A stretch of 64,000 bases of DNA from Polyangia bacterium. Its GTDB lineage: Bacteria; Myxococcota_A; Polyangia; JAAYKL01. The position numbers and the translations under genes were made by a program. Shown piece by piece: positions 3,557-57,594 of the stretch. Position 1 is the stretch's first letter. The number at the start of each line of letters is the position of its first letter. The stretch covers positions 32,001-96,000 of the forward strand of contig JBNKCR010000025.1 in assembly GCA_050287845.1 (NCBI GenBank). The letters are read 5' to 3'. The notes below the pieces were generated by a model, which ran no database searches, was not told the DNA's origin, and saw only the letters and a program-made list of their open reading frames with translations.

Positions 3557-3560
3557 GCCG

Positions 3561-38468: not shown

Positions 38469-38471
38469 TGC

Positions 38472-38885: not shown

Positions 38886-39439
38886 CTTGTACTTTCTTTT
38901 TCAGGTGACAGACTTGTTGCCATCAGCCGAAACCGTTGCAGCTGTCTGTCGACTTTTCTGTTTAAAATGCGACTGAAAAAAAATGCGGGTATTGCAACCA
39001 CCAAACCAGCCTGTGTGGTCAACAAGGCTTCTGAAATACCCCCGGCAATTCCTCCCTGCTGTGAAAAAAAACGCATGGTCGTCAATCCTTCGAAAGTCAC
39101 TATCATACCGCTGACTGTTCCGAGCAAACCCAGAAGGGGCGCTGCAGCCACCAGTGTGTCTATCAGTCTGTCATAAGCATTCAGCTTCTGATGCAGCCAA
39201 CGATTGGCCACTTCCCAACCGGATACCCGTTGAATCAATGTTCTCAGGTAGGTTTCATTTATCCTTTTCGCCTCCACCCAGTTGAAAAAACGAACCCCCA
39301 ACAGCGTCCAAATCAGAATTCCTACCATGAGTAATGGAATCATCACAAACCCACCTGCCTGCATCAGCAGAACAAATGCATCATACACCTTATTTGCCAT
39401 CCCGAGCGCGCCCTGGTATTCACCTGAAGAAATGTTCAC
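38882..39439 (-). CDS. exbB: ExbB/MotA/TolQ proton channel
   Basis: APLLGLLGTVSGMI, GGISEALLTTQAGL; GTG overlaps the upstream TGA. Confidence 0.9.
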   Translation of the reverse strand: MNISSGEYQGALGMANKVYDAFVLLMQAGGFVMIPLLMVGILIWTLLGVRFFNWVEAKRINETYLRTLIQRVSGWEVANRWLHQKLNAYDRLIDTLVAAAPLLGLLGTVSGMIVTFEGLTTMRFFSQQGGIAGGISEALLTTQAGLVVAIPAFFFSRILNRKVDRQLQRFRLMATSLSPEKESTR

Positions 39440-40782
39440 ACGTGCTCTCCTTTTTTCAGAACATTCATGGCGGCCAGACAGTAAATCTGCATATTGTCCA
39501 TAATTTTTCTGGCCCACTTTGCAATGAGACTCCTGGCCAACAGAAAGGGAATCGCCACCGCCAGACCGATTTCCGTGGTAATCAGCGCCTCGGAAATGCC
39601 ACCGGAAAGCAACGCGGGGTTACCAGTGCCGTAACGGGTAATCACATCGAAGGTGGAAATCATCCCCGTCACCGTTCCCAGTAATCCCAGAAGCGGCGTG
39701 GCGGTGGTAATAACTGTTAAAATAGTTAAAGATCGATCCATTTTGGGCAGGGTGCGAAACACCAGTTCGTCGACGCCGTTCTCCATCTCTTCTCTTTCGA
39801 GTTTCCGATTTTCGATCACGTATCGAATCCCCTTTCCCGCTGCCCCCATTCTTCTGCTCAGTTTCTGTGCATCCTGAAATCGATTTTCAGCTATCAAAAC
39901 GGAGACCTTGTTAAAACTGGAAGGCACATAATCTGAATGCATCAGCAGCGTTCCGATACGCTCCAGTACGAGCAGAATCCCCAACGCTGCAATGGCCAGA
40001 ATAACAAACGCCACAGGGCCGCCGGCTTCAGCGGTCTGCCACAGATTTTTTTTGGAATCCTGAATGGAGGCGCCTTTTGGAAATGGAGAAATCAATATCG
40101 GGCCAATTCGTTTGCCCTCCTTCAACGCTTTGACTGCACCGGCTGAGATCTCGCCAACTGCCATCAGTTCTCCCTGGGAGGTTCGGGACAAAATATTTCC
40201 TTTGCCCTTTTCTAAACCCAGCGCCGCAATGTTCCCTATGCGCACTACCGTCCCCGAAATTTCCCTTGCGTCCGTGGAAAAATAGGTCGCCTTTTCTGAA
40301 ACAACCAAACCATGCTGTTTCAGCGTTGAAATCGCAGTTGTCATGCAATTGGAAAAAATCTCATTTTGAGATGCATTTAATGAATGCCTCCCGGAAGATG
40401 CAGTAGCAGATTCTGTTGCGGTGTGAAGCATCGCATCAAACAACGCGTTTTCGTCAGTGGTTTTCTGAGCCGATTCAAATGCAACCTCTCTGGTCTGCTC
40501 CAGTTGTCTCTGCTGTTTCTGCAATGATTCCAAATCATGGAGAGTCTGACTGATTTTCTGTGTCAATTCCTGTTTCTGCTCGTCGGCTTCGTGAATGGTT
40601 TTTTCCAGAGACTGAGAAAGAGCATCCCGAGTGGCAGTCAATTCCCGAAGTTCTCGTCGAAACGCCTCTTCAAATGTGGGTACATTCGCGAATGCGCTGA
40701 CCGGAAGGAAAACAGAAAACAGACCAACGGAAAGATACCGAAGCAATCGAAATAATGGTTGTCGAATTCTGTGTGTTTTCAT
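39436..40782 (-). CDS. Long ExbB-like protein (TtpC-like)
   Basis: Signal peptide, coiled coil, VVRIG, PLLGLLGTVTGMI, GGISEALITT. Confidence 0.85.
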   Translation of the reverse strand: MKTHRIRQPLFRLLRYLSVGLFSVFLPVSAFANVPTFEEAFRRELRELTATRDALSQSLEKTIHEADEQKQELTQKISQTLHDLESLQKQQRQLEQTREVAFESAQKTTDENALFDAMLHTATESATASSGRHSLNASQNEIFSNCMTTAISTLKQHGLVVSEKATYFSTDAREISGTVVRIGNIAALGLEKGKGNILSRTSQGELMAVGEISAGAVKALKEGKRIGPILISPFPKGASIQDSKKNLWQTAEAGGPVAFVILAIAALGILLVLERIGTLLMHSDYVPSSFNKVSVLIAENRFQDAQKLSRRMGAAGKGIRYVIENRKLEREEMENGVDELVFRTLPKMDRSLTILTVITTATPLLGLLGTVTGMISTFDVITRYGTGNPALLSGGISEALITTEIGLAVAIPFLLARSLIAKWARKIMDNMQIYCLAAMNVLKKGEHV

Positions 40783-41561
40783 TCTGCGGTTTTCCCTGAA
40801 AACAGCGGCAATAAATACTGTCCTCCGTTCATCTGTTTTTCAACCTCCGAAAACAGCCGTTCAATTTCCTTCTGTGTATTCCGATTCTGAATCTCCTCAT
40901 ATGCAAATGATCCGCTTGCATCCATCAGCATCGCTCCGAAATGCGTGTTATCGTATCGCGAATACATGGCCACCATTCCCAAGCGCACAACGGAAAGCAG
41001 CCTTCTGGGTTCGCCTTGTTTCACCGACAGTTTGATTCTTCCCATCTCTACGCTGGACGCAAGGTGCTGTTCGCCTTCTGTGAAGCGCCAGATATCAACG
41101 GCTGTTTCCCTGGGCGAAACCGTATCTGTTTCCAGATTCTGTCTCATCCGCTCCAGTGCGCCCAATCGTTCAGAAACCTGAAAGGGAAGACCTCTGCTGA
41201 CCAGCTCTTTTAAATCGGTTATTGCGGAGACACACGACTGTTTCAATGCATCCTCCGTCTGGGAAGCTTCCGTCAGTGTTTCGGTATATCCCCTGATTTC
41301 TTCCTTCAACGTATTACCCTGGAGTACGTGTTCGTCCCGTTGAATCTTCAATTCATTCAGCCGACTTTCCAGTCCGATCAACTCCGCACTTTTCTGACTT
41401 CGAAGGTCACGGAGCTGCGCATCCAGATCGTTGATTTCCACTCTGAGCCCAGCCAGTTTTTCTGGCGCATATTCGTTGGAACTCGTTTCAGCTGCAAACC
41501 CAGTGGTCATCAGCAGTATCACAATGAAAACTGCCCCCGGTTTTTTCCTGGAATCACACAT
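40779..41561 (-). CDS. DUF3450/TtpB-like periplasmic coiled-coil protein
   Basis: Coiled coil, LPFQVSERL, VRLGMVAMY; lies before the TtpC-like gene; start reassigned using GGAAGGA. Confidence 0.7.
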   Translation of the reverse strand: MCDSRKKPGAVFIVILLMTTGFAAETSSNEYAPEKLAGLRVEINDLDAQLRDLRSQKSAELIGLESRLNELKIQRDEHVLQGNTLKEEIRGYTETLTEASQTEDALKQSCVSAITDLKELVSRGLPFQVSERLGALERMRQNLETDTVSPRETAVDIWRFTEGEQHLASSVEMGRIKLSVKQGEPRRLLSVVRLGMVAMYSRYDNTHFGAMLMDASGSFAYEEIQNRNTQKEIERLFSEVEKQMNGGQYLLPLFSGKTAE

Positions 41562-41595
41562 TCTTTGCATTCCTTCCCTGCAAGGGACGCTACCA

Positions 41596-42516
41596 CTATA
41601 AATTTTTTGCATTGCAAAGCCCAACACCGTTGAAATGAACCGAAGCCCTGGCTGCATATTGAACAAAGTGATACAGGGTCCATTCGTTCGGTGGCAGGAG
41701 GCCTCCATCGTTGTACACAACACGGTGTCCCGCTTCGTCCACCAGAGGTTCGCCGTTGTCATTCAGCAGATTGGTTAAATCCTGATTCTTCAATTCCTCT
41801 TCTGTTACCAGACCATCATCCCCCGCCATAGCGGCAAACGCGTCAAATCTCAAATCTTCGTCACCGGATGCCAGTGTGTCCCAGAAAAGATGAATGGCAT
41901 GTGCGTATATATACGCCCCGATGGTTTTTCCCGCTTCAATGGAAATGCCCTGAGTGGTGTCTTTTCCATTGATGCAGTTCGAATAGACAGCGGCGATGGG
42001 CAATCCGATTCGAAACTGCACGGTACGCCCTTTTTCTGGATTTACCGCTTCGCCGGCCACAAGAAATGACCAGCCATTCTGTACCATCAGGGTAATATCG
42101 TTTGCGCTCGCGCTGATACTGACAGTCTGAGCATTCGGCGCCAATAGACTGAATCCAAAATCCAGTCTTCGGGCGGGTAAATTGTTTACAGTGCTGAGCG
42201 TCTCGCTGCCAGTGGCGCTTTGGGCCAGATCCAGCACCATGGGCCCAGCCCATCTCTCCACTTCGCTGGTATCATCCTGCTGCGAAAAAACCACATCGCC
42301 AATAACAATCACATACTTCGTGAACTGCAGTTGCCAGCCGTCAACAAATGCTGTGGTAATGCCATTTTCCGTATAGGGAAATCCCGTCCTCAATGCCTCG
42401 CCGCCGCTTACTTCAAGGGTCAGGCTGCCTTCGCCCGCAGTATCCTCGCTGACACATCCGGCAGCAATAAATACAGACAACAGTGTCAGGAGACAGGTAA
42501 TTGTGAATTTTGTCAT
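41596..42516 (-). CDS. Lipoprotein of unknown function, possibly metal-binding
   Basis: AAGC lipobox; FVDGW, HAIHLFWD, SVHFNGVGLC. Confidence 0.65.
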   Translation of the reverse strand: MTKFTITCLLTLLSVFIAAGCVSEDTAGEGSLTLEVSGGEALRTGFPYTENGITTAFVDGWQLQFTKYVIVIGDVVFSQQDDTSEVERWAGPMVLDLAQSATGSETLSTVNNLPARRLDFGFSLLAPNAQTVSISASANDITLMVQNGWSFLVAGEAVNPEKGRTVQFRIGLPIAAVYSNCINGKDTTQGISIEAGKTIGAYIYAHAIHLFWDTLASGDEDLRFDAFAAMAGDDGLVTEEELKNQDLTNLLNDNGEPLVDEAGHRVVYNDGGLLPPNEWTLYHFVQYAARASVHFNGVGLCNAKNL

Positions 42517-43352
42517 TGTTGACTCCATATAAAATCATAGGAATACCGATTGCGCACTGCCTGAACCAGAGCAGTCATTGCCTGAGTGTCATTGGTGAAC
42601 CGATACACACCATCGGATTCGACTTCGGTAAGGGTAGAAAAGTCTACCCCATCCAACCATGCATCCAGAAAAACACGCGTCAGCAAACGCCCTGGCTTTT
42701 CGCTCTTGTCACGCAATGGAACACTGCCTTCAATGTTCTGTACAATTCGCATGGTGCCTTCATCGGGAATGGTAACCCGCGCACTGAATGGGATGGCCCG
42801 GTCCGCATTGGATGCGGTACCAGTTAATAAAATTGAATCGTTCTGAAGCACGTTTAAGAGCGCATTCTCATCAACCACCGCCAGTCCCTGGTCGCCTCTG
42901 GGATGATAGTGCAGCTCCATGGAAAGGCAGGTTCCTTTTTCGCCGGCCACCATACCTGTGGACGTCACGGTTGGTGCCAGCAAATTGACTGCCTGTTGTT
43001 GAAAAACTTCGCCAAGGACTGTGCCATAATCAAATTGCGAATGGGTGGAACAGGCGTTGGCGATGCCAGTGTGGAACCACAGACTGTTTTGAGTCATGGC
43101 CTCTCCACTGTAATAATACATTGGCCCCATAAGGACAATCGCCTGAGTCAATTGCACGGTCCATCCTCCGCTGGTGGTGAATGACGAGATACTGCCTTTG
43201 GATGTAGCCCCCTGAACGCCGGTGGCAAATGTGATGGATTCACCTGCTGTGGTCGCATCACACGACGTGGTCAAAAGGGGGGCTGCGGCGACAAACAGTG
43301 TTGCCGAGACAATGACCGACAACAGTTTTTGTATGAATTGGGTATTTTTCAT
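42513..43352 (-). CDS. Lipoprotein of unknown function
   Basis: TTSC lipobox-like; ACSTH and LHYHP; GAGG RBS. Confidence 0.65.
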   Translation of the reverse strand: MKNTQFIQKLLSVIVSATLFVAAAPLLTTSCDATTAGESITFATGVQGATSKGSISSFTTSGGWTVQLTQAIVLMGPMYYYSGEAMTQNSLWFHTGIANACSTHSQFDYGTVLGEVFQQQAVNLLAPTVTSTGMVAGEKGTCLSMELHYHPRGDQGLAVVDENALLNVLQNDSILLTGTASNADRAIPFSARVTIPDEGTMRIVQNIEGSVPLRDKSEKPGRLLTRVFLDAWLDGVDFSTLTEVESDGVYRFTNDTQAMTALVQAVRNRYSYDFIWSQQ

Positions 43353-43429
43353 TGAGGACCTCTTAAAAAATGATACATGCCTCGCACTGCCGGACAGTTC
43401 TTTTTTCAGCCAGATAGGCGGGCAAAAAG

Positions 43430-44371
43430 TTACTCTTCTTCTGCAATCTGAAATACGGTGAACTCAACCGTACCGCCTCCGGGTATCGGCTTGAATCGAA
43501 TGACATATGGCACCGGATCTGTGCCTTCGGTCTGGTCATCGTCGCCATCCCATTCCAGGTCCGCATGCCAGTGTTCCGGAATATTTTCAGCGCACAGCGT
43601 CACCGCCGTACCGCCGGAAGTCGTCATCAGAGTGCCGTCCCGGTGCTGTATCCCATCGAATATACCTGTCTGATTGAAGAAAACAGCGTACTCGCCACAG
43701 CTGAATACCGGAAAATGAATGTAACTTGCTGCATTATTCGGCAACGTGACACTGATTCTGGTCTCCTGGTCCGCATGATAGTCTTCAGCAAATACATCAT
43801 CGAATACCGTGACAACCCCTTTGAATTCGACCGCCTCAGCCAGAATTGCATCACAGGCACGTTGTGGATCAAAGGTCTCTTCCACCGCATTCTTTTCGCA
43901 CAGCGCTTCGGATTCACTCGCCTGACATGTGGCGGCGGTTCCGCACGGTTCGATGGCGATAGACAAGGAACCGTTGTTCATTACACAATTGTACGCGCTG
44001 TTGTTTTCGCACTTGAATGTCCCCGCTGCACAGGTGGATGTCTCATCCAGACACGCCGCAGTTGACGCACTGGTTTCCACACAGGCATATCCAAGGGCAG
44101 CGCAATCCGCGCCCCAGTGAAAATGAGGTTCCATTCCCTCAACGATGTGACAGTACTGCACCTTGTTACCAACGCACTGCTCCCAGCCGTCTCTGTCAGT
44201 GGTGCATTCGTAGGAAATATCCTGGTTGTAAGAGTCTGATGGTGATGTATCGGACGCAGTATCCACCGTGCTGTCAGCGTCGTTGCTGTTATCGTCACAG
44301 GCAGAGATTGAAACGAAGAGGATCGCACTGAACAGTGCCGCGAGTTTCGAAATTTTGAATTGATTTTTCAT
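43430..44371 (-). CDS. Cys-rich lipoprotein with HxH motifs
   Basis: ISAC lipobox; many Cys; HFH and HWH. Confidence 0.7.
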   Translation of the reverse strand: MKNQFKISKLAALFSAILFVSISACDDNSNDADSTVDTASDTSPSDSYNQDISYECTTDRDGWEQCVGNKVQYCHIVEGMEPHFHWGADCAALGYACVETSASTAACLDETSTCAAGTFKCENNSAYNCVMNNGSLSIAIEPCGTAATCQASESEALCEKNAVEETFDPQRACDAILAEAVEFKGVVTVFDDVFAEDYHADQETRISVTLPNNAASYIHFPVFSCGEYAVFFNQTGIFDGIQHRDGTLMTTSGGTAVTLCAENIPEHWHADLEWDGDDDQTEGTDPVPYVIRFKPIPGGGTVEFTVFQIAEEE

Positions 44372-44433
44372 TTTTGCTTTTCCTTAAAAAAAATTCTTCC
44401 TCATGTTGTTTCGAGGAAGTGTAAAATTGATTT

Positions 44434-46812
44434 TTATTCCCTTTCTGCGTTTGACATGTCTTTTATGGAATGAAACAGGTCTTCCAGATGCAGGGTAAGG
44501 GTTCCCATTAAATAAAACGGTTCTCCGGCGACAAAATGTCTTTCTGGAACCCGTGAAGGAGCTGCATCGGCAGCCATGAAATTGGATGCGTAATTGAACT
44601 CGGCCTGCCGGTATTTGAGATTGAACAGATTCCGTATCTCCACCCCCAGAGAAAAATGCCAGAGTCGAATATCACCGCCCGCATTCAGCAGATACATGGC
44701 ATCTCCTTTTTCATCGAGAGGCAAAGGCCGTCCCGGTACCCAGGTGTATCCCAGACCAAAACTTCCGGTCATGGGCACTTTTTTGATGGCGAGATTCCCA
44801 ATCTGTCCGGATATTGCCACATCGGCACGCACTACCATGCGTGGAATATAGGGCAGAAGCTCACCTGTGGAATCAAGAGTGGCCTGTGTCCAACCCGCAT
44901 TCAGGAGCACATCAAAAAGAGAAATGATTCTGGAACGGACGCCAAACAAAATCGCATGTCTTGTTGAGGCACCCGCGAGAATGTTTCGTCCGTCGGTTTC
45001 GCTGAACACAAGGTCCTTGTCCACCCTGGTGAGGCTGTAACTCAGTTGAGAGGACAATTTCAGAGGGCCCTGTTCCTTTCCGTAAGTATAGGCAAACCCC
45101 GCATCAAACTCCTGCGCTCTGGCAAACGGTGCGGTTTCGTTGTCAGAGAGCGCAGCCGCATCAGTGGACCTGGTGCCCTGACCGTAAGATATCATTCCAT
45201 GTAAACCGCGAATAATTTTCATATCCACAGTCGCGCGGGGATTCAGAGAAAAACCCATACTCTGACTGGTTTGATTGGGAACACGAATTCCCTCGCGGTC
45301 AGAATCCGCCTGATTCTGGTCAGTGACGCCGAAACTGAATACATCCAGTCGCAGTCCGCTCCTGAGGGTCAGCCGATGAAACATGCGAATCTGAGCGCGA
45401 AACCAGCCTGCCACATTGACAACAGTGAAATCATTATCGAACACCTGCCCATATGGAATCGCGGTGACCGAACGCAACCGAAGCTGCTCGGAGCTGCCTG
45501 TATCCAGACGGATAGCATACCCCACCGCCAGACTCTGTTTCTGATCAAACAACGATTCGGTAAGCGTATACTTTCCTCTGGCGCCAGCAGTGACCACCTT
45601 GTAACGCATCTCCATCCCATCGCCCCTTTGTACTTTTCTTGTTTCACCATTTTCATCCACCAGCGAATCGTTGAACCATCCCGTGAAATTGGTACGCAGC
45701 CGCATGGTTTTCAATCCCGCAAAAACAACCTGTTTGAATTGCGACCGTTCAGGTCCGGCAGTCAGGTCAAATGATGTCAGAATGCGATTACTTTCTCCTC
45801 CCTGGTTGGGATCATATGTATCAAAAAATTCCATTATGCCGTTTTCGTAATCATCCTCACGCACTACTCCTGGCTGATCAAATCTGGCCGCATATCCATA
45901 CACGCTGATGCCATAGGTGAAGTTCTGTCCCTCCCAGTCATCGGTGAATCTGCCCAATGCAAGAACACGCTGCGCCGCACGGTTTACGCCGTACCCGTCG
46001 CTGGTGTAGTATTCGAATCCACCGAACGTGCCACTGTTTTCCTCCTTTGGCGCCCAGGTGAAAAGAGTTCGCCGGGTATTCCATCTGCCAAGTCCCAATG
46101 ATACATTCGCTCCCTTTTCTGGCGCGCCGAGTTTGTATTCCGCAGTTCCGGCAAAGGCGAAATCTCCCTGTTCCGGATCAAACGCGCCTTCCGTGACAGC
46201 CACACTCTGAACCAGTTCAGGAGGAATGAAGTACAGGTCCGTATACCCATGATTATGAGGATTGCTTACCTCGTTCAAAGGAATACCATCCACCAAAAAC
46301 GCGATGTCCTGACCTTCATTGGAGGCAAATCCGCGCATATAGGTTTCCTGAGCGTGTCCTTCGCCGCCGTGATTGGTAGTCAGAACTCCAGGTGCCAGCA
46401 TCAATTGTTCGGCCACATTTTTACGCGGAATCACCCGAAGGGTGCCAATTTCCAGACTGTAATGAGATGCGGAAGTCGCTTCTGTACGCTGTTCGCCAGT
46501 TACAGTGGTGTCCTCAAGCCGATATTCCGACACATTCCCTTGCGTCTTTTCATCATGAATGGATGGTCTGTTCAACGATGATTGCGCCATCGACGCTGCT
46601 TCTTCGTTGACCGACTGCGACACCACCTCCGGAGAGGTTGGACGGGGGGCCAACTCGAGGTCAGGCACCTGTGTGTCTGTACCCGTGTCTATACTCATGT
46701 CTGTATTCTGTTCTGTATCCATATCCGTTGCGCCAATTGCAATTGACACGTCTACGTGAAGTAAAATACACACGCCTGCCATACAGCACAATTTGCCTGT
46801 TTTGAACCGCAA
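44434..46812 (-). CDS. TonB-dependent receptor with His-rich plug, putative transition-metal uptake
   Basis: NHGGEGH, YMRGF, VDGIPLN, PHNHGYTD, IPPEL, NLFN; GGGAG then TTG 46812. Confidence 0.85.
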   Translation of the reverse strand: MRFKTGKLCCMAGVCILLHVDVSIAIGATDMDTEQNTDMSIDTGTDTQVPDLELAPRPTSPEVVSQSVNEEAASMAQSSLNRPSIHDEKTQGNVSEYRLEDTTVTGEQRTEATSASHYSLEIGTLRVIPRKNVAEQLMLAPGVLTTNHGGEGHAQETYMRGFASNEGQDIAFLVDGIPLNEVSNPHNHGYTDLYFIPPELVQSVAVTEGAFDPEQGDFAFAGTAEYKLGAPEKGANVSLGLGRWNTRRTLFTWAPKEENSGTFGGFEYYTSDGYGVNRAAQRVLALGRFTDDWEGQNFTYGISVYGYAARFDQPGVVREDDYENGIMEFFDTYDPNQGGESNRILTSFDLTAGPERSQFKQVVFAGLKTMRLRTNFTGWFNDSLVDENGETRKVQRGDGMEMRYKVVTAGARGKYTLTESLFDQKQSLAVGYAIRLDTGSSEQLRLRSVTAIPYGQVFDNDFTVVNVAGWFRAQIRMFHRLTLRSGLRLDVFSFGVTDQNQADSDREGIRVPNQTSQSMGFSLNPRATVDMKIIRGLHGMISYGQGTRSTDAAALSDNETAPFARAQEFDAGFAYTYGKEQGPLKLSSQLSYSLTRVDKDLVFSETDGRNILAGASTRHAILFGVRSRIISLFDVLLNAGWTQATLDSTGELLPYIPRMVVRADVAISGQIGNLAIKKVPMTGSFGLGYTWVPGRPLPLDEKGDAMYLLNAGGDIRLWHFSLGVEIRNLFNLKYRQAEFNYASNFMAADAAPSRVPERHFVAGEPFYLMGTLTLHLEDLFHSIKDMSNAERE

Positions 46813-46886
46813 AACGAATCTCCCGCGACACACGAACTCGTCGCCGATTTACACAACCAAAAAGATTTCAGTTTACCAGGACTGGT

Positions 46887-47303
46887 TCATCCATGAAAGA
46901 TGGGCGGTGAATTGGAAGGAGATATAGGATAAACAGGTTTGCAGAAATACGTATCTTCTTCAAATACCCGAATATCCAGTTGGACAGAAAATATCTGTAC
47001 CGTATCGGCATTTTCATTACTCTGAAATATCTTTGCCTGTTGCAGTAAGGCAAACACGTTGCATTCGCGGTCCGAATCGGAATCTTTGTTGTCTTTTGGA
47101 GTGGAACGACTGCTGTCATGGGTCGAATGAACTGTGGATGCCGAATGTTTATGAACCACTTTGCCAGTGTGAGGATCAACGGAATGAGACACCAATGAAA
47201 AATGCAGCGAAGAAACAATCATCGACAGCAGCATCAGCGAGATGAGTATCAATGCATTTGTTTTCTGCTGCCTTATCGTTATGTGGCTCTCCCGTCTTTT
47301 CAT
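46887..47303 (-). CDS. His-rich small membrane protein, DUF2946-like, first gene of the operon
   Basis: One TM, LHFSLVSH..PH..VHKH, single Cys, C-terminal SPSNSPP. Confidence 0.6.
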   Translation of the reverse strand: MKRRESHITIRQQKTNALILISLMLLSMIVSSLHFSLVSHSVDPHTGKVVHKHSASTVHSTHDSSRSTPKDNKDSDSDRECNVFALLQQAKIFQSNENADTVQIFSVQLDIRVFEEDTYFCKPVYPISPSNSPPIFHG

Positions 47304-47334
47304 TCTTATTCGATCTATCCTCCCAGGTAACCTC

Positions 47335-47363
47335 ACTGATAATCAGTTGGCCTTCGTTGTCAA
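47335..47363 (-). promoter_or_regulatory. Putative promoter with palindromic Fur-family-like operator
   Basis: TTGACA (47363-47358); ACTGATAATCAGT palindrome (47335-47347) over the expected -10. Confidence 0.5.
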
Positions 47364-47499
47364 GCAAAAGGCGCTGGTGCGTCTAATTTGTTGGTTATGT
47401 GAAACGGCTTTCATAGTGGTCTTTTAATTTTTGTTATGTCTGTTGATGACTATCTGCCGTTCACCGCTTCTCGAATAATTACGGTAATGTTTCGCATAT

Positions 47500-47712
47500 C
47501 TGAATTCAGAAGAAAACCTGCAGGGCTGCATGCACGGCTGAAAAGCAGAAAGTATCGCGCACAGCCATCCATTGGCAAATGGATTCCCAGACGTTACGGC
47601 GCAAAGAGACCTCTGGCCATACCGGCCCTGGAGGACAAGATAGTGCAAAAAACAGTATCGATGCTTCTGGGAGCGGTATATGCGCCCATGTTTCTGGACT
47701 GCTCCCACGGGT
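47500..47712 (+). pseudogene. Group II intron reverse transcriptase fragment (RT0-2 region)
   Basis: YRAQP..WIP..KRPLAIPALEDKIVQ..F..SHG; homology stops abruptly; no YADD. Confidence 0.85.
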
Positions 47713-47741
47713 GTCGGGGGTACCCCCGACTTCTACTCGGA
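47709..47741 (+). mobile_element. Group II intron 3' end (domain VI-like)
   Basis: GTCGGGGG-TA-CCCCCGAC hairpin then TTCTACTCGG; no domain V visible. Confidence 0.6.
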
Positions 47742-47805
47742 AAAGGACACCGCAATCGCGCTGTCGCGTGGTCAGTCAGGCGCCCGTGAAGCAGGGGCGT
47801 TCTGC
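47742..47805 (-). other. attC-like half site (R'', L'', central arm) just after the gene's stop codons
   Basis: - strand GCAGAAC-GCCCC-TGCTTCAC-GGGCGCC..GGTGTCC. Confidence 0.6.
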
Positions 47806-47808
47806 CTA

Positions 47809-48429
47809 TCAAAACGAAAATGTTACACCGATGAATTTTTGTGTGTCGCTGCCAATAAATGATAGTGATTGAAATTCGAAATGATAATTCTGTATAGTTT
47901 TCAATCTATGCAGCCTTGGCAAGATACTGTTTGACATTCTTATCTTTTTAACGCCAGATATCAGAAATATTGTGCCCGGGATTCCTGTCACTCCAGAAAC
48001 TACAAAAGATCCTGCTGCGAAAAGGTATCCGATGCCACAGAAATTTGGGTTAAAATCATCATCCTCATCTTTGTCTGAATTCGCATCGTCTCTATTGCAT
48101 TCATCAACTCCAGCCACAGACGCAATTCCGATTGCGGTACCTGCAATGCTGGTCGTATAAAAGATGAAGCCAAGTGTTGTTAAAATCTTTCCAGTTCGCT
48201 TTTGCTTTTTAAAATGGTGAATTTCAAAATCGACAAATGAAATCTGGCTTGAATTGGTATTCTCAAGATAGATTCCATAATCTTTGTAAAAGACATCCTC
48301 GTTGAGAATGAGTTTTAAAATTACTTCATCATCCTGAGACAATTTCTGTGAAATTTCATTGGCTTGACATTGGTACGAAACAGACATCAGGTAAATTGAA
48401 GAAACGACAAAAATGGGTAAACTCTTCAT
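47809..48429 (-). CDS. AT-rich hypothetical membrane protein, cassette-like gene
   Basis: Signal-like N-terminus, two TMs around a C..acidic..C loop; TGA TAG double stop. Confidence 0.6.
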   Translation of the reverse strand: MKSLPIFVVSSIYLMSVSYQCQANEISQKLSQDDEVILKLILNEDVFYKDYGIYLENTNSSQISFVDFEIHHFKKQKRTGKILTTLGFIFYTTSIAGTAIGIASVAGVDECNRDDANSDKDEDDDFNPNFCGIGYLFAAGSFVVSGVTGIPGTIFLISGVKKIRMSNSILPRLHRLKTIQNYHFEFQSLSFIGSDTQKFIGVTFSF

Positions 48430-48542
48430 CACATGCGTTGGTTGCAAATTGAGTACCAATTTTAAGGCGGAAAAACTGTATGGATGTGAAGTAACGAATG
48501 TGAAAGTTTCATACAGTGCTTTTTTTGAAAGTGTGAAAACGG

Positions 48543-48561
48543 GCAGAATAAGCGCTTGCTC
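48543..48561 (-). other. attC-like half site (L', R')
   Basis: - strand GAGCAAG-CGCTT-ATTCTGC, complementary to GCAGAA and GCTT in the other half. Confidence 0.55.
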
Positions 48562-48960
48562 GTGCCGAGGAAAGCTCGGTGACGTTGGGATAGGGAATGA
48601 CGACCCTTGAAATCGTCTTTGTACTCCAGTGGGTGAGCTGAGAAGTGACTCCCAATGGAACAGGGATTGGTCATCCGGTCCGTAGCTGAACTGAGAGGCG
48701 ATTTTTGAGAAAGGATGTCTGAAGCAGAAGTGAAGCGAAAATGCAGGCTGCGTAATTGAATCCCGAAATATGTACAGTGGCGGTCCAATTGGATAAGCGA
48801 GAGTAAGTGAAAGTCGACGACTGCAAGCATCGGAAGGCTGTAGACCCTGTAGCGTCAATGACACGTGACTGAGACACCGCGGGGAATCTGGAGCGGGGCA
48901 TGTTTTAAAAAGGGGCACCCGGGAACCTCGGGAGAGCCTACTGTTTCCTCTGGTAAAACA
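48562..48960 (+). mobile_element. Group II intron 5' part (domain I), truncated
   Basis: GTGCC start; domain I-like motifs AGGCTGCGTAATTGAATCCCGAAA, GAAGGC, GGGAACCTCGGGAGAGCC; right boundary approximate. Confidence 0.65.
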
Positions 48961-49046
48961 CCGATGTTGGGTGTGGCGGGACATCAAAAACACCAAATGT
49001 TTCTGGTTTATGGGAATGCGATGCCCCCGGTCTCCCTGCGGATCGT

Positions 49047-49634
49047 CTATGGCGCGATTACGACCCCGCGCACACAGCGGGCGTGGAAGCTGTAGTAAAT
49101 GCGGGGTTTGTAAATGAATCCGCCGGCAAACCCGATGGCCCAGGCGCGGTCTGAAACGTCCGGAACCCTATCTGCGGACCAGTAGTGCTCGCACGGCGCG
49201 CCCAGTTCCACCGCTTTGGCGTAGCAACCGTTCATGGGGCCATCACCGAAGGCGCATGCATAACAGGCATTTGTCTGGCAATCGTTTTCAATGCAGGTGT
49301 CATCCACCACGCATTCCCCGCCAGTCACCGTGGGCGCACATCCGGCCAGCAGGGTCCGAAGCTCCGAAATATGGGGCAATCGCCAGTCCTGCTGACCGTT
49401 CAGGTTCAGGGTGTCGCAATAATCCACGGCCTGACGCCAGGTGGCGTAGGTCTCGGGCAAATCCGCCTGCCATATCAGCCCGGTCTGAGGATCGGTCCAT
49501 ACGGACGCCACCACCGGTTCTGTCGCGCATTCCGTTGAATCGTCGGCGCAGGCCGTCAGGGTGAGCATCAGTATACCGCACAGCACAGGTGGAATCTGAA
49601 GTCGCGTGAATAATGATTTCATTCCATAGGACAT
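49047..49634 (-). CDS. DUF1566 (Lcl-like) domain lipoprotein
   Basis: LTAC lipobox; DPQTGLIWQ, AVDYC, DWRLPHISEL, YWS, ARCVR. Confidence 0.85.
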   Translation of the reverse strand: MSYGMKSLFTRLQIPPVLCGILMLTLTACADDSTECATEPVVASVWTDPQTGLIWQADLPETYATWRQAVDYCDTLNLNGQQDWRLPHISELRTLLAGCAPTVTGGECVVDDTCIENDCQTNACYACAFGDGPMNGCYAKAVELGAPCEHYWSADRVPDVSDRAWAIGFAGGFIYKPRIYYSFHARCVRGVVIAP

Positions 49635-49964
49635 ACTGTATTCATCACCATCCGGTCAATGACTCTGATGATACGAATTTTCCCGACACCCCCAATGCTT
49701 TCCCCGGGGCGATTCCCGCGGACGCCTGCACCATGTCTCCGGTGGTGGTCCACAGGTGATCTGGCACAGCTGGCACACTGATGCCGTGTCGAGCAATTTC
49801 GCAATAATACGGGCAATTCCAATGATTTATTGTGTTGATTCGCAAAAATATCGTCGCGGACACAATGGTATGAATGTTGATAAGTACACCCGGAAGCAGC
49901 CGTTGAAATGAGCTGTCAACGAACGCCATTGCATTTTCGTTTGAGAGCCGCGTATAGTACGCCG

Positions 49965-51098
49965 ATGATTGAAAGTACGCCGATGACCGAACAACCTTTT
50001 TTTCCGCCGCCACGCCGTGTTCTCTGGGAAATCACTGCCCACTGCAATCTGCGTTGTGCCCACTGTCTGGTGGATGCCGGCGGGGGTAATGTCGCCCGGG
50101 AGTTCAGTACCGATGAGGCGCTGGCGCTGGTGGAAGATCTGGCACAACTGGGACCGACGGCCGTGTCCCTTACCGGAGGCGAACCGCTGCTGCGTAAAGA
50201 CTGGTTTCAGATTGCAGAGAAAATCCGCGCCCGGGGCATGGGGCTTCGGATGTCATCCAACGGGCATCTGCTGACCGAATCGATGGTGGAATCCCTCAAG
50301 GCCCTGAAGCTGGAGCTGTTTACCCTGAGTGTTGATGGCGACGAAGTCATCCACAATCGGCTTCGTCCCTATGCCCTTGGAAATGCGACGAAGAATTCGT
50401 TTCAGGATGTGCTGCAAGCCATCCGGTTGCTCAACCGGCATGGGATTGAGACCCACGTGATCACATCGGTGAGTCAGGAAAACCTGGGCGAATTGCCCCG
50501 CATTCACCAGTTGCTTAAACAATTTGATATCGCGCGCTGGATTCTGCAACTGGTGCATCCCACCGGCCGGGCCGCCCATTCAACCCCGTCCCGGGGGCAC
50601 ATGGAAAATGCGTGCACGCCCATTTTGCCGCAGCAATTGCCGGCGGTGGCCGATTTTATCGTGGCCCACGCCGATGATCCCGTGCTGCAACCCACCGCGT
50701 TCAACTCCATCGGCTATCTGAGTCGCCAGGAACCCGTGCTGCGCAAAAGCGGCAAACGTGCCCGCCGGCCCCTCTGGCAGGGATGTCAGTGCGGTATCGA
50801 GGTAATGGGCATTGAACCCGACGGCGGCATCAAGGGCTGCGCCAATCAGGTGGGGGCGCCATTTGTGGTGGGCAACGCCAGAGAAGAATCGGTGGTGAAC
50901 ATCTGGAACGATCGTCGGCGCTGGCACTGGCTTTCCCCCCGCCCCGCGGATGCCGGAGGAGACTGTGCGGAATGCGCCCTGTTTCACCTCTGCCGTGCCG
51001 GCTGCACCGCCGTGGCGTACCAATCCACTGGCGAACTGTACAACAATCCCTATTGTCTGCGGCGGGTGGCAGCGGCCGACTCCGATGCACCACATTAA
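49965..51098 (+). CDS. Radical SAM/SPASM protein 1
   Basis: WEITAHCNLRCAHC, TGGEP, GC..KGC, CAECxxxxxCRAGC, NPYC; start 49965 or 49983. Confidence 0.92.
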   Translation: MIESTPMTEQPFFPPPRRVLWEITAHCNLRCAHCLVDAGGGNVAREFSTDEALALVEDLAQLGPTAVSLTGGEPLLRKDWFQIAEKIRARGMGLRMSSNGHLLTESMVESLKALKLELFTLSVDGDEVIHNRLRPYALGNATKNSFQDVLQAIRLLNRHGIETHVITSVSQENLGELPRIHQLLKQFDIARWILQLVHPTGRAAHSTPSRGHMENACTPILPQQLPAVADFIVAHADDPVLQPTAFNSIGYLSRQEPVLRKSGKRARRPLWQGCQCGIEVMGIEPDGGIKGCANQVGAPFVVGNAREESVVNIWNDRRRWHWLSPRPADAGGDCAECALFHLCRAGCTAVAYQSTGELYNNPYCLRRVAAADSDAPH

Positions 51099-51109
51099 AA
51101 GGAAATCCC

Positions 51110-52402
51110 ATGAAAGTCGTATTTATTGTCGTTGACAGTTTCAAGAGCACCGCGCCGGGGTTTGGGGGTGGACCGGATTCGCCGTTTCTCGACCATCTCG
51201 CGCAGAATGGCACCGTGTTTGAGCAGATGTTCGCCAGCGGCGCCTGGACCACGCCCTCCCTGATGGCCATGCTCACCGGATGCCTGGGTCATCGCATCGG
51301 GATAGCCCGGTGGCGTCATCCGTTTCCCGCAAAAATCCCCACCCTGCTCACCGCCTTTGCGGAAGCGGGGTTTGAGGTGAACTGTTTTCATCCCTATCCC
51401 AGATGGGGCTTCCTGACGGTACCGGACACGGGAGTGGTGAAAAACAGTCAGGACCCGGACGACATTGTGCGCACCCTCAAAAGCGCCCCGGGCAGCGATC
51501 AGTTTGTCCTCATTCACCACTGGTGGACCCATCTGCCATACGCCAACCGGGAACTTTCGCTGGAGGCGTGGCACCGCCTGTGCGATTTTCAGTTGCGCTC
51601 CCTGGAAAAGTATCCCCGGCAAATCCGGCCCAAACTGAAACAGTCCTACCTGAAAACGGTTCAGTATTTCTCGCAGCAGTTGCTCAATCGATATCTCGAT
51701 GCCGCCACAGCCGGTGGCGATGATGTACTGCTGGTGGTTACCGGTGACCACGGGGAAACCTGGGGGGAATCTCATCCGGCGGGATACCGGGTGCAGAATG
51801 TGTACGATTTGCATGGGCGATGGATCAGCGACGAAACGGTGCAGGTGCCCCTCCTCTTTTACGGCAAGGGCATTCCCGCGGCCCAACGGATTTCGGGGTT
51901 CGCCCGGGGGGTGGATTTGGCCCCCACCATCTGTGCGCTTTCGGGCATTCCCTGGCCCGGCCCGGCCCACTCGGCGGTGGGGGAAGAAACCATTGTCCGG
52001 GATATTGCCGGAACCGATCGACTGGGCGTTTCTCTTTCGCCGAGCATCCTCAGCGGCGAAGCGACCATGTGCGAAAGTGCGCCCACCGTGAGCAGTCACA
52101 ATGCATTTGTTCCGAGAACCTATCCGGACAGCGGCCCGGCCCTGTGGCGCATGCTCGCCGAACGCACCAGGGACGGATGGCACATCTGGGATGGGGTTGA
52201 CCAAATCCGATCCACCTGCCAGGGCAAGGTGTATACCCAGCACGCCGAAGCCACGGACGATGCCCTGTTTGCGCGTCTGGAAGCGCAAAGGCTGCGGGCG
52301 GTGGACCCCGGTGCGCTGGTGAGCGATGCTGCCGTGGAGGAGCTTCGAAACAGCGATGAACTGGTGGCTGCGCGACTCCATTGTCTGGGATATCTGGAGT
52401 AG
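51110..52402 (+). CDS. Sulfatase-like alkaline-phosphatase-superfamily enzyme (Thr-type site)
   Basis: IVVDS, WTTPSL, HLPY, TGDHGE, VPL, DLAPT, C-terminal LGYLE. Confidence 0.85.
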   Translation: MKVVFIVVDSFKSTAPGFGGGPDSPFLDHLAQNGTVFEQMFASGAWTTPSLMAMLTGCLGHRIGIARWRHPFPAKIPTLLTAFAEAGFEVNCFHPYPRWGFLTVPDTGVVKNSQDPDDIVRTLKSAPGSDQFVLIHHWWTHLPYANRELSLEAWHRLCDFQLRSLEKYPRQIRPKLKQSYLKTVQYFSQQLLNRYLDAATAGGDDVLLVVTGDHGETWGESHPAGYRVQNVYDLHGRWISDETVQVPLLFYGKGIPAAQRISGFARGVDLAPTICALSGIPWPGPAHSAVGEETIVRDIAGTDRLGVSLSPSILSGEATMCESAPTVSSHNAFVPRTYPDSGPALWRMLAERTRDGWHIWDGVDQIRSTCQGKVYTQHAEATDDALFARLEAQRLRAVDPGALVSDAAVEELRNSDELVAARLHCLGYLE

Positions 52403-52404
52403 GA

Positions 52405-53475
52405 ATGACCGATTCGTTGACCATGCCGAAAAGATGTTACTGGGAACTTACCCGACGCTGCCTGGGCGCGTGCGTGTTCTGCCGCAACGGGGGCGCAACA
52501 GACATGGCGGAGCTGTCGTTGGCACAGTCCCTTCAGGTGGCCGATGAACTGGTTCGTCTGGGCATCCGGCGGGTGGTGCTCACCGGCGGCGAGCCGGTAC
52601 TCTACGATGGGTGGGAAATGATTGCTGCCCGGCTGACCGCCAACAGCGTGCGCGTCTGGCTGTTTACAAGTGGCATGGGCATGACCGATGAACTGATTGA
52701 TTCAGCGCGCGGGGCGGGTATCTCCCGGGTGCTGATTCCCCTGGACGGGGATGAGGCCACCCACCGTCGCCTGCGCCCAGCCGCTTCGGACCGGGGGATG
52801 GGTTCGTATGCAGCCGCCGTCAGCGCCATGAAGAAGTTCGAAGAGGCGGGGATGCCGGTGATTGCGGTCACGGCGGTCAATCATATCAATGCACGGGTGC
52901 TGAACGGGATTTACGCCACGTTACTGAACCTGGGCGTGCGGGACTGGCAGGTGCATCTGGGCCAGCTGACCGGACGCGCCAGTGAACATCGCCTTGAACT
53001 GATGTGTACCCACGACGATATGGAAGCCATTGTGGACATGTTGAAACGGGTGGCTGTGGAAAACCGAATCCATGCGCCCCTGCATTGCACCGTAGGCTAC
53101 ATGGTGCCGGAAGAAGCCCTGCTTCGAAGTCCCAATGCCTCCGGGCAGCCCTTTTTTGATGGATGTCCGGCGGGCATTCGCACCTTCGGCATCACCCCGT
53201 CGGGAAAGGTGAAAGGCTGTACCGCCATGGAAGACGAGTTTGCCACGGCGAGTCTGAGGCAGGAATCGCTGGAAACCATTCTCAAAAACGACACACATTT
53301 CGCGGTGACGCGGATGGATGAAAGTCACCGGCACCTCGAAGGCCCGTGTGCCACGTGTTCGTTTGGCGGCGTGTGCCGGGGCGGGTGTCCGGCGGTGGCC
53401 TATGGGCTCACCGGCGCAGTCGGCGCCAACCCGGCGTGTCTGCACATCCTGCGAAATCGTTCTGCAAACCAATGA
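52405..53475 (+). CDS. Radical SAM/SPASM protein 2
   Basis: WELTRRCLGACVFC, TGGEP, GCPAG..KGC, CATCxxxxxCRGGC, NPAC. Confidence 0.92.
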   Translation: MTDSLTMPKRCYWELTRRCLGACVFCRNGGATDMAELSLAQSLQVADELVRLGIRRVVLTGGEPVLYDGWEMIAARLTANSVRVWLFTSGMGMTDELIDSARGAGISRVLIPLDGDEATHRRLRPAASDRGMGSYAAAVSAMKKFEEAGMPVIAVTAVNHINARVLNGIYATLLNLGVRDWQVHLGQLTGRASEHRLELMCTHDDMEAIVDMLKRVAVENRIHAPLHCTVGYMVPEEALLRSPNASGQPFFDGCPAGIRTFGITPSGKVKGCTAMEDEFATASLRQESLETILKNDTHFAVTRMDESHRHLEGPCATCSFGGVCRGGCPAVAYGLTGAVGANPACLHILRNRSANQ

Positions 53476-53649
53476 AACCATGGATGATGGCACAGTTGGC
53501 ACAAATGGTGGAAATGGGCATAACCTCCTGTAATTACAGCGCATATATATTAAATGCCAGGCTGGTGTCTTTTTTGCACTATCCGGAAATAACAATTCTA
53601 ACGTATGCATAGGGCAACGGGAGATTGCCTGAGGCAACGGAGGTTCATC

Positions 53650-54339
53650 ATGGAAGCAACACAAACACCGCTTGTGGAGATTCGAACATTTTTAACCCGT
53701 CATCGGGCGCCGGTGGCGCCGTGGACATCTGCGGAGGGAACGGTGGAAGCGTTGTATGCCACGCTGCAAACCCATCGGGACGATTCGGAATTCTGGTTGG
53801 CCCTCAAAAAGTTGAGCATCCGTCTGGAGGGACACATGATTTCTCCTTCTGCGGCGGTCAATTGCGACGTACTTCGGCATGCCACCGTCAGCCAGCTGCT
53901 CGATGACCTGCAACGGGAGCTTCAGCAGAAAAAACCGACGGGCGGGGTTCAGATGTGGATCAGGACTCCCATTGTGGTGACTGCCCTGGCCGGATTTCTG
54001 TTTCTGGGATGCGTCGCATCCGATGACGACGGGACAACCAACGGGTCCGGAATCACTGCGCTCACCGATGACGAACTGAATACGTGCGATGAGGATGGGG
54101 TGGAGACAGGGGACTGCGCTGACTATGTGGAGTTGCTGGAGGTGGTGAAGGAAGCGGAAATCTGGGAAGGAACCCTGGACGATCTGCTGACTTGCCTGCC
54201 GAATCTGGATGCGGCGTTTCGCCGGGAAATGCTCGACGCCTTTGACAACTTCAACGACGATGAAATTGCTTCGTACCTTGCCAACCTGACCGACAGTGGT
54301 CAGGTGTGTTTTGATGATGATGACATCGGCGGCCACTGA
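53650..54339 (+). CDS. Hypothetical bitopic membrane protein with acidic, Cys-containing C-terminal domain
   Basis: GGAGG then ATG 53650; internal TM ending FLFLGC; D/E-rich tail. Confidence 0.7.
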   Translation: MEATQTPLVEIRTFLTRHRAPVAPWTSAEGTVEALYATLQTHRDDSEFWLALKKLSIRLEGHMISPSAAVNCDVLRHATVSQLLDDLQRELQQKKPTGGVQMWIRTPIVVTALAGFLFLGCVASDDDGTTNGSGITALTDDELNTCDEDGVETGDCADYVELLEVVKEAEIWEGTLDDLLTCLPNLDAAFRREMLDAFDNFNDDEIASYLANLTDSGQVCFDDDDIGGH

Positions 54340-54354
54340 GCGATTTATCACTGT

Positions 54355-55701
54355 ATGAATCCCTCCCGCGTTGTCATTATTGGACTGGACTCGGTTGCGC
54401 CGGCACTGGCGTTTGATCAGTATCGCAATGAAATGCCGAACCTTCGCGCCCTCTGCGATGGTGGTTGCTTCGGTCCCATGCGTTCCACGGATCCCCCCAT
54501 CACCATTCCCGCCTGGATTTCGATGACCAGCGGACGCTCTCCCGGACAACTGGGTATTTACGGCTTTCGACACTATGCCCCTTTGGACCCGCCGGAACTG
54601 GTGAACTCCACGGATGTGCATTTCCCGCGCATCTGGGATTTGGCTGCGGAGGCCGGGATGAAGAGTGTGGTGGTGTCGGTGCCGGGAACCTATCCCCTTT
54701 CCCCCCGACCCCGGGTGACCATGACCACGGATTTCACCACACCGTCCGCAAGGAGCCGTTGGATAGCGAAACCGTCGCTCCGGCAGGAGCTGACCTCCCT
54801 TTTCGGACCGTACATCGTGGATGTGGCAAACTTCCGAAACGACGATACGTCGAGGGTGTCCGCCGAATGCGCGGCCCTGACCCGCCAGCATTTCGGCATT
54901 TTCAGACATCTGATTCAAAAAGAGCAGCCCAGGTTCGCCATGCTGGTGGACATTGCCCCGGACAGATTGCACCATGCGGCGTTGCATCGCATATGGCGGG
55001 ACCATCCCGCGTTTGAAGACAACGCACCGGGCATCGAATATTACCGGCTTTTAGATGATGAAATCGGAAAAACCCTGGCGCTGCTGGACAGCGATACCCT
55101 GGTGATGGTGGTCTCGGATCACGGGGTGAAGCCTCTTTGTGGTGGCATCTGTCTGAACGAAATTCTGATTCGGAGTAGACATCTGGTGCTCGCCGATAGC
55201 TATCCCGATAAGCCGGTACCGTTGAACGGGCTGAATATTGACTGGAAGCAGACCACCGCCTTTGCCCATGGCGGCTACGTGGGTCGGGTTTTTTTCAATC
55301 GAATGAAAGAGATGTCCGCCGGTGATGCGCAGCGCCTCGGCGAAGAACTGAAAGATGTGCTGAAAACGGCGGGCATGCGCAATGGAGAAGCCCTGCAGCA
55401 TCAGATATTTTCCCCCGGGGAGTTGTACGGACCGGCCGCAGGAACCCCACCGGATTTCACCGTCTACCTGGACAATCTCAATTACCGGGCCATCGGCAGC
55501 GTGGGCCATGGCGCCATTCAGATTCCCGGCAACGACCAGGGCCCGGACCGCGCCAACCACGACCTGTTCGGCATCTTCGCCGCCAACATTAAAGGCAGCA
55601 CCCTGCGCACCTCGTTCAACATCTGCGATGTTTTCGCCTCGGCAGTGAGAGCACTCGGGATAGCGCCACCTGAAGGCACTGCCGGCGAATCGATTTTATA
55701 G
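54355..55701 (+). CDS. Type I phosphodiesterase/nucleotide pyrophosphatase-family protein
   Basis: IIGLDS, PPITIPAW, DRLHH, VSDHG, ANH. Confidence 0.88.
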   Translation: MNPSRVVIIGLDSVAPALAFDQYRNEMPNLRALCDGGCFGPMRSTDPPITIPAWISMTSGRSPGQLGIYGFRHYAPLDPPELVNSTDVHFPRIWDLAAEAGMKSVVVSVPGTYPLSPRPRVTMTTDFTTPSARSRWIAKPSLRQELTSLFGPYIVDVANFRNDDTSRVSAECAALTRQHFGIFRHLIQKEQPRFAMLVDIAPDRLHHAALHRIWRDHPAFEDNAPGIEYYRLLDDEIGKTLALLDSDTLVMVVSDHGVKPLCGGICLNEILIRSRHLVLADSYPDKPVPLNGLNIDWKQTTAFAHGGYVGRVFFNRMKEMSAGDAQRLGEELKDVLKTAGMRNGEALQHQIFSPGELYGPAAGTPPDFTVYLDNLNYRAIGSVGHGAIQIPGNDQGPDRANHDLFGIFAANIKGSTLRTSFNICDVFASAVRALGIAPPEGTAGESIL

Positions 55702-55965: not shown

Positions 55966-57594
55966 ATGGTATCATGGACAAAATTAATTAGTTTGGCGAT
56001 GTTACTGATGCTTGCATCATGTAACGACCCCATTTCTTCCGACGGGGACTCCAGCGGGCCCAGCGACAGCGATACAGATACTGATACGGATTCCGATAGC
56101 GATACGGATGCGGACAGCGACAGCGATACCGATACGGACAGCGATACCGATACGGACAGCGATACCGATACGGACACCGACACCGACAGCGATAGCGATA
56201 CGGATACGGATACAGACAGCGATAGCGATACGGACAGCGATAGCGATACGGACTCCGATACAGACACCGATACAGACACCGACACCGATACGGACACGGA
56301 CACCGATACAGACACCGATACAGACACCGACGTGGAAACATTTGTGCGGTTTGAACCGTCGTGCGAGGGCTCCGGCACCACCCATTACGCCAGCCCTTCC
56401 GGCAGTGGCAACGATTGCAGTGAAGCGAGTCCATGCTCCCTGCAAACCGCTGCATCCAGACCCAAGCCGGGGGATATTGTCTGTCTGCGTGGCGGAACCT
56501 ACCAGGGGCCTCTTGAAATCAGCGGCAACATTGCCGGTACCCAGAACGGCTGGATCACGTTCTCCACCTATCCGGGAGAATTACCCATCATCAATGGGGG
56601 GGTCACCATGATGGACTCCGCCTCCACATATCTGCGATTCAATGGCATTGCCTCCATTGGTGGGGTTTCCGGGTTTGAAAATGCATTGGGATTCAACCAG
56701 AATGGCAATCTGCAGTTTTATAATTGCGTCGCTGACATGAACACCATGAACGGTTTTGGGCTGCATGGTGCCAGGGGATTCCATGTGGCCCAATGCATTG
56801 CGGCTCATACTGGCAGTGACGAAGAGTTTTCGTGGTCGAGTGGTATGGATTTCTGGGGCATCAATGGTACCCCTGCGGACAATCTGGTGGAGAGTACGGT
56901 GTCGTTTGAAAATGTGGATATGGAGTGCCACAGCGATGGCAACGGTTTTATCACGGACATCGGCAACATGGGGGGCGGCGGGACCGGCGCAACTTTTATG
57001 AACAATATCGGATTCCGCAATGGGGGCTCGTGTTTCCGGGTGACGGGCTCTTCCAATACCGTGATTATCAACAATACCTGTTTCGGCAATGGGCTCGATC
57101 CCGCTGCGGGCATTGTGCCTACCAACCATCGCTGCGGTGAAATGGAGATTCCGCCTCCAACGGAACCTGGCGAAATTTATTTTAATGATGACGGTGAATG
57201 TCTGGCCGGTGCCAGGCTGTACAATAACCTCGCGGTTTCCCGCGGTCCCGGTCACCCCGCCATCAATCTGAAGCCCACGGAAACCGGCAACAATGTGGGG
57301 ATAAAAGACAATGATGGGACAGAAATTTTCACCAATCCGCCCCTGGATTTGACCGTTCTGCCGGACGCGGGCGCGGAAATATTCGGAAAGGCCAATCCGG
57401 ATGAGGCCCCCGAATACGACATTGGTTTTGACCCCGGATGCATTAAAGAAGGCGCCCCCAGTGGACAGGGCGTTCAACCGTGGTGGCAGTACTCAATCGA
57501 CTACGAATACATCGAAAGCGTTGGCGGCATTGTCGGATGTTTCAATCCCAGACGTCGCACCAGTTCCACCGACGTCGGCGCGTACGCCCACTGA
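55966..57594 (+). CDS. Lipoprotein with DS/DT linker and right-handed beta-helix domain
   Basis: LASC lipobox; [31 protein letters not shown]. Confidence 0.8.
56065..56331 (+). repeat. Coding hexamer repeat giving a (D-S/T)n linker
   Basis: GACAGC/GATACC/GATACG/GACACC units over about 267 bp. Confidence 0.95.

Follow-up and report, generated by a model that had tools for sequence, protein, structure and literature searches.

The window, by which we mean the whole 64,000-nucleotide stretch of genome G000 (7.17 Mb, 159 contigs, 52% GC) analysed here, holds between positions 47500 and 48960 a gene cassette flanked by two parts of split attC sites, each of which is joined to one end of a group II intron, so that the intron's 3' end stands ahead of its 5' end. 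This permuted layout is real and probably a relic. The more lasting result, in our opinion, is the intron itself, which on the evidence of recurring junctions within one genus appears to lie outside class C, to read with the attC top strand, to split the L'' box and to carry unusual terminal bases. For the layout we favor, with a probability of about 0.65, a reading in which one cassette bounded by two split attC sites is the eroded remainder of a small array, two neighboring sites of which had each been invaded by the intron.

Five pieces can be followed along the + strand of this region. A remnant of the intron-encoded reverse transcriptase (RT; 47503–47712, +), covering approximately residues 58–127 of the protein P0001 with a frameshift near 47523, is joined at 47712/47713 to a domain VI remnant and the intron 3' end (47713–47741, +; ending in CTACTCGGA), which matches the copy on contig G003:C111. 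The right attC part follows (47742–47806, +) and comprises, on the top strand, the end of L'', the central hairpin, the L' box (47786–47792, +) and R', with the core GTTCTGCC at 47799–47806 (+); in an nhmmer search, a profile built from whole attC sites of this genome recognizes it with an E-value of 1.1e-10. The cassette measures 733 bp and carries a 206-aa ORF (47809–48429, −) inverted relative to the attC top strand. On its far side the left attC part (48542–48559, +) presents R'' as GGCAGAAT, a 4-base spacer and L'' through GCTTGC, these last bases (48554–48559, +) being the predicted IBS1. The intron 5' part most likely begins at 48560 with TCGTG and contains the whole of domain I and the beginning of domain II (48560–48945, +), its right end being uncertain between 48945 and ~48995. 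Domain I is closed by a stem of 48565–48570 with 48926–48931 (+), and the predicted EBS1, GCAAGC (48823–48828, +), is fully complementary to 48554–48559, its loop position having been aligned to full-length relatives. There is no overlap between the intron pieces, and from the ~500-base leader of relatives we estimate that ~270 intron bases are absent between them; domain V and the remainder of the RT ORF have been deleted from this copy. An earlier sequence-only reading of the same DNA had described these five pieces, in this order and with a domain VI-like end behind the RT fragment, and all of them were found where it had placed them.

The strand on which the intron lies follows from comparison with whole attC sites. 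A profile from G000's own attC sites (32 matches, 26 with E below 1e-5) gives a whole-site order that runs from R'' (YAAC) over a spacer of 4 bases to L'' (GYTTGCAN), and on through a central hairpin and L' (NTGAARC) to a spacer of 5–6 bases and R' (GTT), with the extra base sitting in L'', and in 14 of 16 inter-attC segments the longest ORF follows the top-strand direction. Compared with these sites, both window parts read top strand on +, and the intron is therefore in the top strand and in the direction of the cassettes. The sequence-only reading had correctly seen two attC halves, which do match the attC family of the genome, but had assigned them to the wrong strand, probably because the ORF is inverted; it had also read ATT for GTT in R', whereas R' has GTT at this locus and it is R'' that carries a deviant base, with AAT instead of AAC. 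Its proposal that the rejoined flanks make one attC stands in so far as they fit the attC profile (R'', L'', L' and R' boxes), with 49.0 bits as first joined and 54.8 bits when the halves are joined at 48559/47742, but the two spacer positions next to the L box do not form Watson–Crick pairs. The right attC part scores 43.9 bits by itself on the G000 profile.

No integrase lies in the window, as had been noted, and the observation extends to its contig, which has none of the 12 TIGR02249 matches in G000; the one full IntI of the genome is on contig C81. The attC sites are found on at least 10 G000 contigs, often with one to four per place. Several of them (C27:40712 and C141:4713, 5152 and 5702) are without the same few L'' bases, near the intron target position. 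Further short internal fragments of the L''-splitting intron were seen at C143:17693–17810 and C141:146613–146661, one of these standing where a 10-site array ends on its downstream side.

The cassette is compact, with a GC content of 0.37. Its 206-aa ORF has no Pfam match, none of 235 candidates proved homologous to it at E≤1e-3, and its Atlas matches, at 0.95, are to unnamed clusters (recognition 2296). The hydrophobic stretches at the N terminus and inside the predicted protein suggest a small exported or membrane(-anchored) product. Another inverted cassette ORF, encoding a lipoprotein-like protein of 177 aa, lies beside intI in the same genome (C81:211–790). Promoter and terminator matches at the locus are consensus matches only. 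We found no empty site: G002, G003 and G018 retain the TonB-receptor gene, and synteny with them stops at or just past the adjoining small gene. The TonB-dependent receptor region itself (37827–47336, −), which also has ExbBD/TonB-like genes and, upstream, a small His-rich gene, has a different upstream neighbor in every relative checked. Elsewhere in the window there are two cobalamin riboswitches (3550–3782, +, and 36226–36350, −), a run of radical SAM/SPASM genes alternating with sulfatase- or phosphodiesterase-like genes (49908–55701, +; motif-based names, of which Pfam confirms the first only) and a lipoprotein-like ORF bearing a long Asp-Thr/Asp-Ser repeat (55966–57594, +).

Evidence for a fixed target comes from related copies. 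A DNA search of 61 genomes returned the intron 5' part in four, all of the same family as the window genome, and five copies in G000, G001 and G003 retain its first bases (the window, G001:C507, G003:C15, G003:C88 and G003:C111). All five start directly after an attC left arm that is cut inside L'', after GYTTGC, and the five arms are all different. A sixth match to the pattern, in G016, has no intron behind it. This agrees with the earlier claim that the intron splits attC at one fixed position, and the other copies do share that position, although none of them is full-length. At the opposite end, both visible 3' ends (the window and G003:C111) run into an attC right arm, as found with a pattern that itself included attC bases, and a protein search for 3' ends yielded only one further close 3' piece, which is ended by a contig edge.

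The 3' boundary of the earlier reading, at 47741, holds, while its 5' boundary at 48562 is most likely to be replaced by 48559/48560, for several reasons that point the same way. The base after GYTTRC is A in 13 and G in one of 14 whole attC sites and T in none, so that the TC preceding GTGCC is not attC. A MAFFT alignment sets TCGTG against the GTGCG columns of 10 relatives, and five leader bases are left in front of the stem that closes domain I. A T stands immediately before EBS1 in all 16 relatives that pass a 6-of-6 pairing filter, a set that was thereby selected for a match and includes many near-identical members, and on this basis EBS1 is read here as GCAAGC. The register with the better attC profile score is likewise the join at 48559/47742. 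The predicted EBS1–IBS1 interaction has six of six pairs in the window, against four Watson–Crick pairs, one wobble and one mismatch for the EBS1 of G003:C15 with its own exon; EBS1 is visible in these two of the five copies.

With the start so placed, the intron likely ends in UCGUG...GA, replacing the canonical GUGYG and AY. It is through homology and through the agreement of their junctions, and not within one molecule, that the two ends are connected, because no full-length copy was found: the metagenome pattern scan gave 0 matches, none above 51% identity was present among the 80 metagenome loci kept of 125 or in 4668 plasmid records, and none was present in viral contigs, where 76 pattern matches had no intron behind them. 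The intron 3' end is also absent from 400 other genomes drawn from the phylum. No U-starting introns were found in the text of PMC2882425.

The class of the intron was approached through its RT and its RNA domains. The RT remnant is 86% identical to P0001 over 64 aa, with seven more residues upstream in another frame. P0001, the closest full-length relative, is a metagenomic intron protein of 426 aa that matches Pfam RVT_1 only, keeps the YCDD motif, ends after the maturase region and lacks an endonuclease domain. A quick IQ-TREE analysis of 47 rows places the fragment with P0001 (support 100) inside a 38-row clade (support 97) that excludes the class C, D, g1, g2 and g3/F rows, in a sampling that contains no class E reference and leaves out g4 and basal F. 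The three class C rows were labelled by their short domain V and by similarity and not by a database label, the D, g1, g2 and g3/F references were labelled from Tables S1 and S2 of PMC3552965, and L255 and L129, having no usable ORF, were omitted. Judged by this placement, the intron is outside class C and, by elimination in a tree that lacks a class E reference, would be of class E type. The link to IIC introns and to the bottom strand that the sequence-only reading had drawn is wrong, given the position of the RT outside the class C rows and of the intron on the top strand. One candidate class E label, P0027 (Halorhodospira halochloris), was dropped from the tree when supplement 1 of PMC7923331 showed that it is not H.ha.F1, and no intron was present in the 40 of 67 kb examined of the plasmid searched for Pr.ae.I1. 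Many metagenomic relatives of the RT clade (L061, L064–L067, L069 and others) are nested inside other group II introns.

Rfam, which had been suggested as a check on both pieces, recovers domain I as group-II-D1D4-6 at 48646–48895 (41.5 bits, E 7.5e-10, under the gathering score of 49) and finds no domain V (RF00029) in 47000–49500. In the G003:C111 copy the end of the ORF is preserved, together with a domain V-like hairpin that has an AAC triad, folds well (z −2.7) and gives no RF00029 match at E≤0.01. Minimum free energy folding of domain I is no better than that of shuffles (z 0.0), and the domain VI remnant gives z −1.2. The window copy is dead, since with domain V deleted and domains II–IV missing its pieces cannot splice in cis. 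The cassette, too, is likely immobile, since insertion into L'' would set the integrase-binding boxes ~1.9 kb apart if the intron had the size seen in its relatives.

The L''-splitting intron is not the only one at these attC sites. A second intron family, which from a protein motif we take to be CL1-like, is represented across G000, G001 and G003 by 21 matches to its 3' remnant. These remnants (L256–L276; G000 C27, C32, C89 and C150, G001 C507 and C407, and G003 C88, C111 and C231) are numerous and 5'-truncated, end in CTACCCGGA and stand directly before cassette genes, and the bases that follow CTACCCGGA often fit the tail of R', five bases into that box. The 5' end of this family was never seen among the 21 matches. 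G001:C507, G001:C407 and G000:C32 carry fusions in which the L''-splitting intron supplies the 5' piece and the second family the 3' piece, and such fusions replace the attC core (L029:1490–1870, L033:1–550 and G000 C32:32000–32320), as if both introns had once occupied one attC and the middle had been deleted. A short TCGCGA-rich repeated element is present inside remnants of both families in G001 and G003 (L033:85–300, L035:1585–1690, and L037:1385–1500 and 2250–2320).

These observations enabled us to propose a history for the permuted order. In this model, a short array with at least two attC sites would have arisen away from intI, like many in G000, and an intron RNP would then have reverse-spliced after GYTTGC in each site. 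The invader would have been a group II intron of class E type that is predicted to use EBS1 pairing for homing on the top strand, and its insertion, by splitting the L box, would block IntI and freeze the cassette. Deletions would later have taken the outer part of each intron copy together with the neighboring array, so that what remained was an intron 3' end to the left of the cassette and a 5' end to its right. A cassette that lies between two intron-bearing attC sites reads 3' end, right arm, gene, left arm and 5' end, and the permuted order is, on this model, a by-product of tandem copies.

The sequence-only reading had offered two options, and the one in which two neighboring attC sites were hit is favored over a single opened circle by the pairing of the spacers and by the locus on G003:C111. 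At this locus the two spacer positions next to the L box set C against A and G against G, neither of them a Watson–Crick pair. Of 14 whole sites, 1 lacks both pairs, as do 72 of 182 cross pairings. This test, which gives a ratio of ~5 to 1 for two sites, is a small one, and its weight is lessened by drift of the sites and by the G–T wobble that one of the two mismatches would form on the bottom strand. Nor does duplex energy separate the models, the halves giving −11.4 (with a right part one base short) against a true-site mean of −11.2. On G003:C111 the same order recurs around two cassettes (intron 3' end, two cassettes, intron 5' end), with a remnant of a second intron between them, and the L boxes mismatch there too. 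The opened circle, in which a single circular cassette bore the intron within its own attC, broke open within that intron and was then captured at the locus, could draw on the fit of the rejoined halves to the attC profile, on intron pieces that do not overlap and on the complementarity of R'' and the R' tail (GTTCTGCC at 47799 with GGCAGAAT at 48542, seven of eight bases). This last would, however, hold for any arrayed cassette and is hence non-discriminating. The halves of one site should moreover pair at the spacer positions, and since IntI likely cannot excise a split attC the intron would have had to strike a free circle, all of which leaves us regarding this history as improbable. Somewhat less improbable, but still unlikely, is that recombination between two cassette-flanking intron copies released a circle that carried a hybrid attC and a single intron and that went back into the chromosome at this place without IntI, entering by a break, or by a remnant already resident, within the intron. 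Such an event would account for the non-matching halves, the non-overlapping intron pieces and the lone position; blocks in G003 likewise terminate inside intron copies, and an 8-base repeat is present near both outer ends (47486 and 48996). A repeat of that length, however, occurs in 10% of 1500 composition-matched random pairs and is not significant, the ~270 intron bases estimated to be missing between the pieces count against such a circle, and small arrays away from intI, described as common in the accessible part of a preprint (bioRxiv 10.1101/2022.09.11.507474), need no special transport.

Two further explanations would make the layout either functional or artificial. The splice sites face in reverse order, as they do in natural circularly permuted (CP) group II ribozymes (PMC8637638, in its accessible text), and a working permuted ribozyme might join the ends of the cassette transcript by back-splicing, giving a circular RNA in which attC is restored. 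The loss of domain V refutes this in cis, domains II–IV are absent as well, the linker of 818 bases with an antisense ORF compares with circles of 32–86 bases described in the same text, and the layout is not conserved across loci, so that we hold this to be very improbable indeed. An assembly chimera of repeated pieces might be feared in an assembly of this many contigs that contains repeated intron remnants, but is scarcely credible here: in contigs from the read run that may be the source, 47300–48686 is contained in one, without differences, and 48665–49100 in another, with no joints and at similar depths (26 and 25), sequencing runs from two other studies bridge the outer edges of the locus, and the junction types recur in two other genomes. 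One may also speculate, though we think it improbable, that tandem top-strand introns provide an integrase-free exit for cassettes, with recombination between copies, or back-splicing that joins one copy's 3' splice site to the 5' splice site of the following copy, releasing a circle with a rebuilt hybrid attC, the window being a fossil of this process. An RNA route together with the intron RT might then yield intron-free circles, and tandem arrays might be raw material for CP group II ribozymes.

Comparison with known systems, as far as the accessible parts of the cited papers describe them, highlights what is distinct about this intron. Group IIC-attC introns belong to class C and insert at R'' (TTGT/T) of the bottom strand, in an orientation opposite to that of the cassettes, with a hairpin replacing IBS2 (S.ma.I2 type; PMC3001079, PMC7923331); a top-strand IIC case is cited in PMC7923331. 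The window intron shares with them the recurrence of a group II intron at one attC position, but it is non-C, lies on the top strand and cuts after GYTTGC in L'' instead of at TTGT/T in R'', in agreement with the earlier remark that it does not look like the classic IIC-attC pattern. Other non-IIC introns have been described in cassette arrays, namely UHB.I2, a CL1 intron in the cassette direction just downstream of attC with ends UUGCG..GU (Sonbol and Siam 2021, PMC7923331), and H.ha.F1 and H.ha.F2, 5'-truncated class E relics in CALIN after attC-like hairpins (PMC7923331); in the accessible text of that paper none of the three is reported inside L'' or with UCGUG..GA ends. Our search of the open-access literature, with subscription papers lying mostly outside it, likewise yielded no description of introns that sit in L'' or begin with UCGUG.

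The remaining comparisons concern the ribozyme class and the setting. CP group II RNAs have the conserved, ORF-less order D5-D6-linker-D1-D2-D3-D4 with a short linker (Roth et al. 2021, PMC8637638). The window has in common with them a domain VI 5' of domain I and reversed splice sites, but it is without D5 and D2–D4, its linker is a whole cassette of 818 bases with a 206-aa ORF, and an RT remnant is present. With class E/IIE introns (PMC3753933, PMC3552965) there are shared features in the RT-maturase without an endonuclease domain (as seen in P0001), the IIB-like domain I and the predicted exon choice through EBS1, whereas the intron ends and the AAC triad of G003:C111 deviate from the usual consensus as given in the accessible text. 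Small CALINs and SALINs, with one or two cassettes far from intI, are described as common (bioRxiv 10.1101/2022.09.11.507474); the window differs from them in that both of its attC sites are split by introns and that the unit ends in introns and not at an attG crossover.

Published attC specialization has been worked out only for bottom-strand class C introns, with scattered non-C cases besides. A lineage with an EBS1 that reads L'' and with changed terminal dinucleotides would show that attC has been recolonized by ordinary RNA–DNA homing, and the occupation of R' by a second, CL1-like intron in the same genomes means that two families would share one target. Insertion at a spot that breaks the site would be a way for cassettes to freeze and for arrays to decay to lone genes. 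Furthermore, two intron copies around a cassette form a natural permuted intron–exon layout, which makes the origin of cassette circles testable, even though the copy in the window is itself dead.
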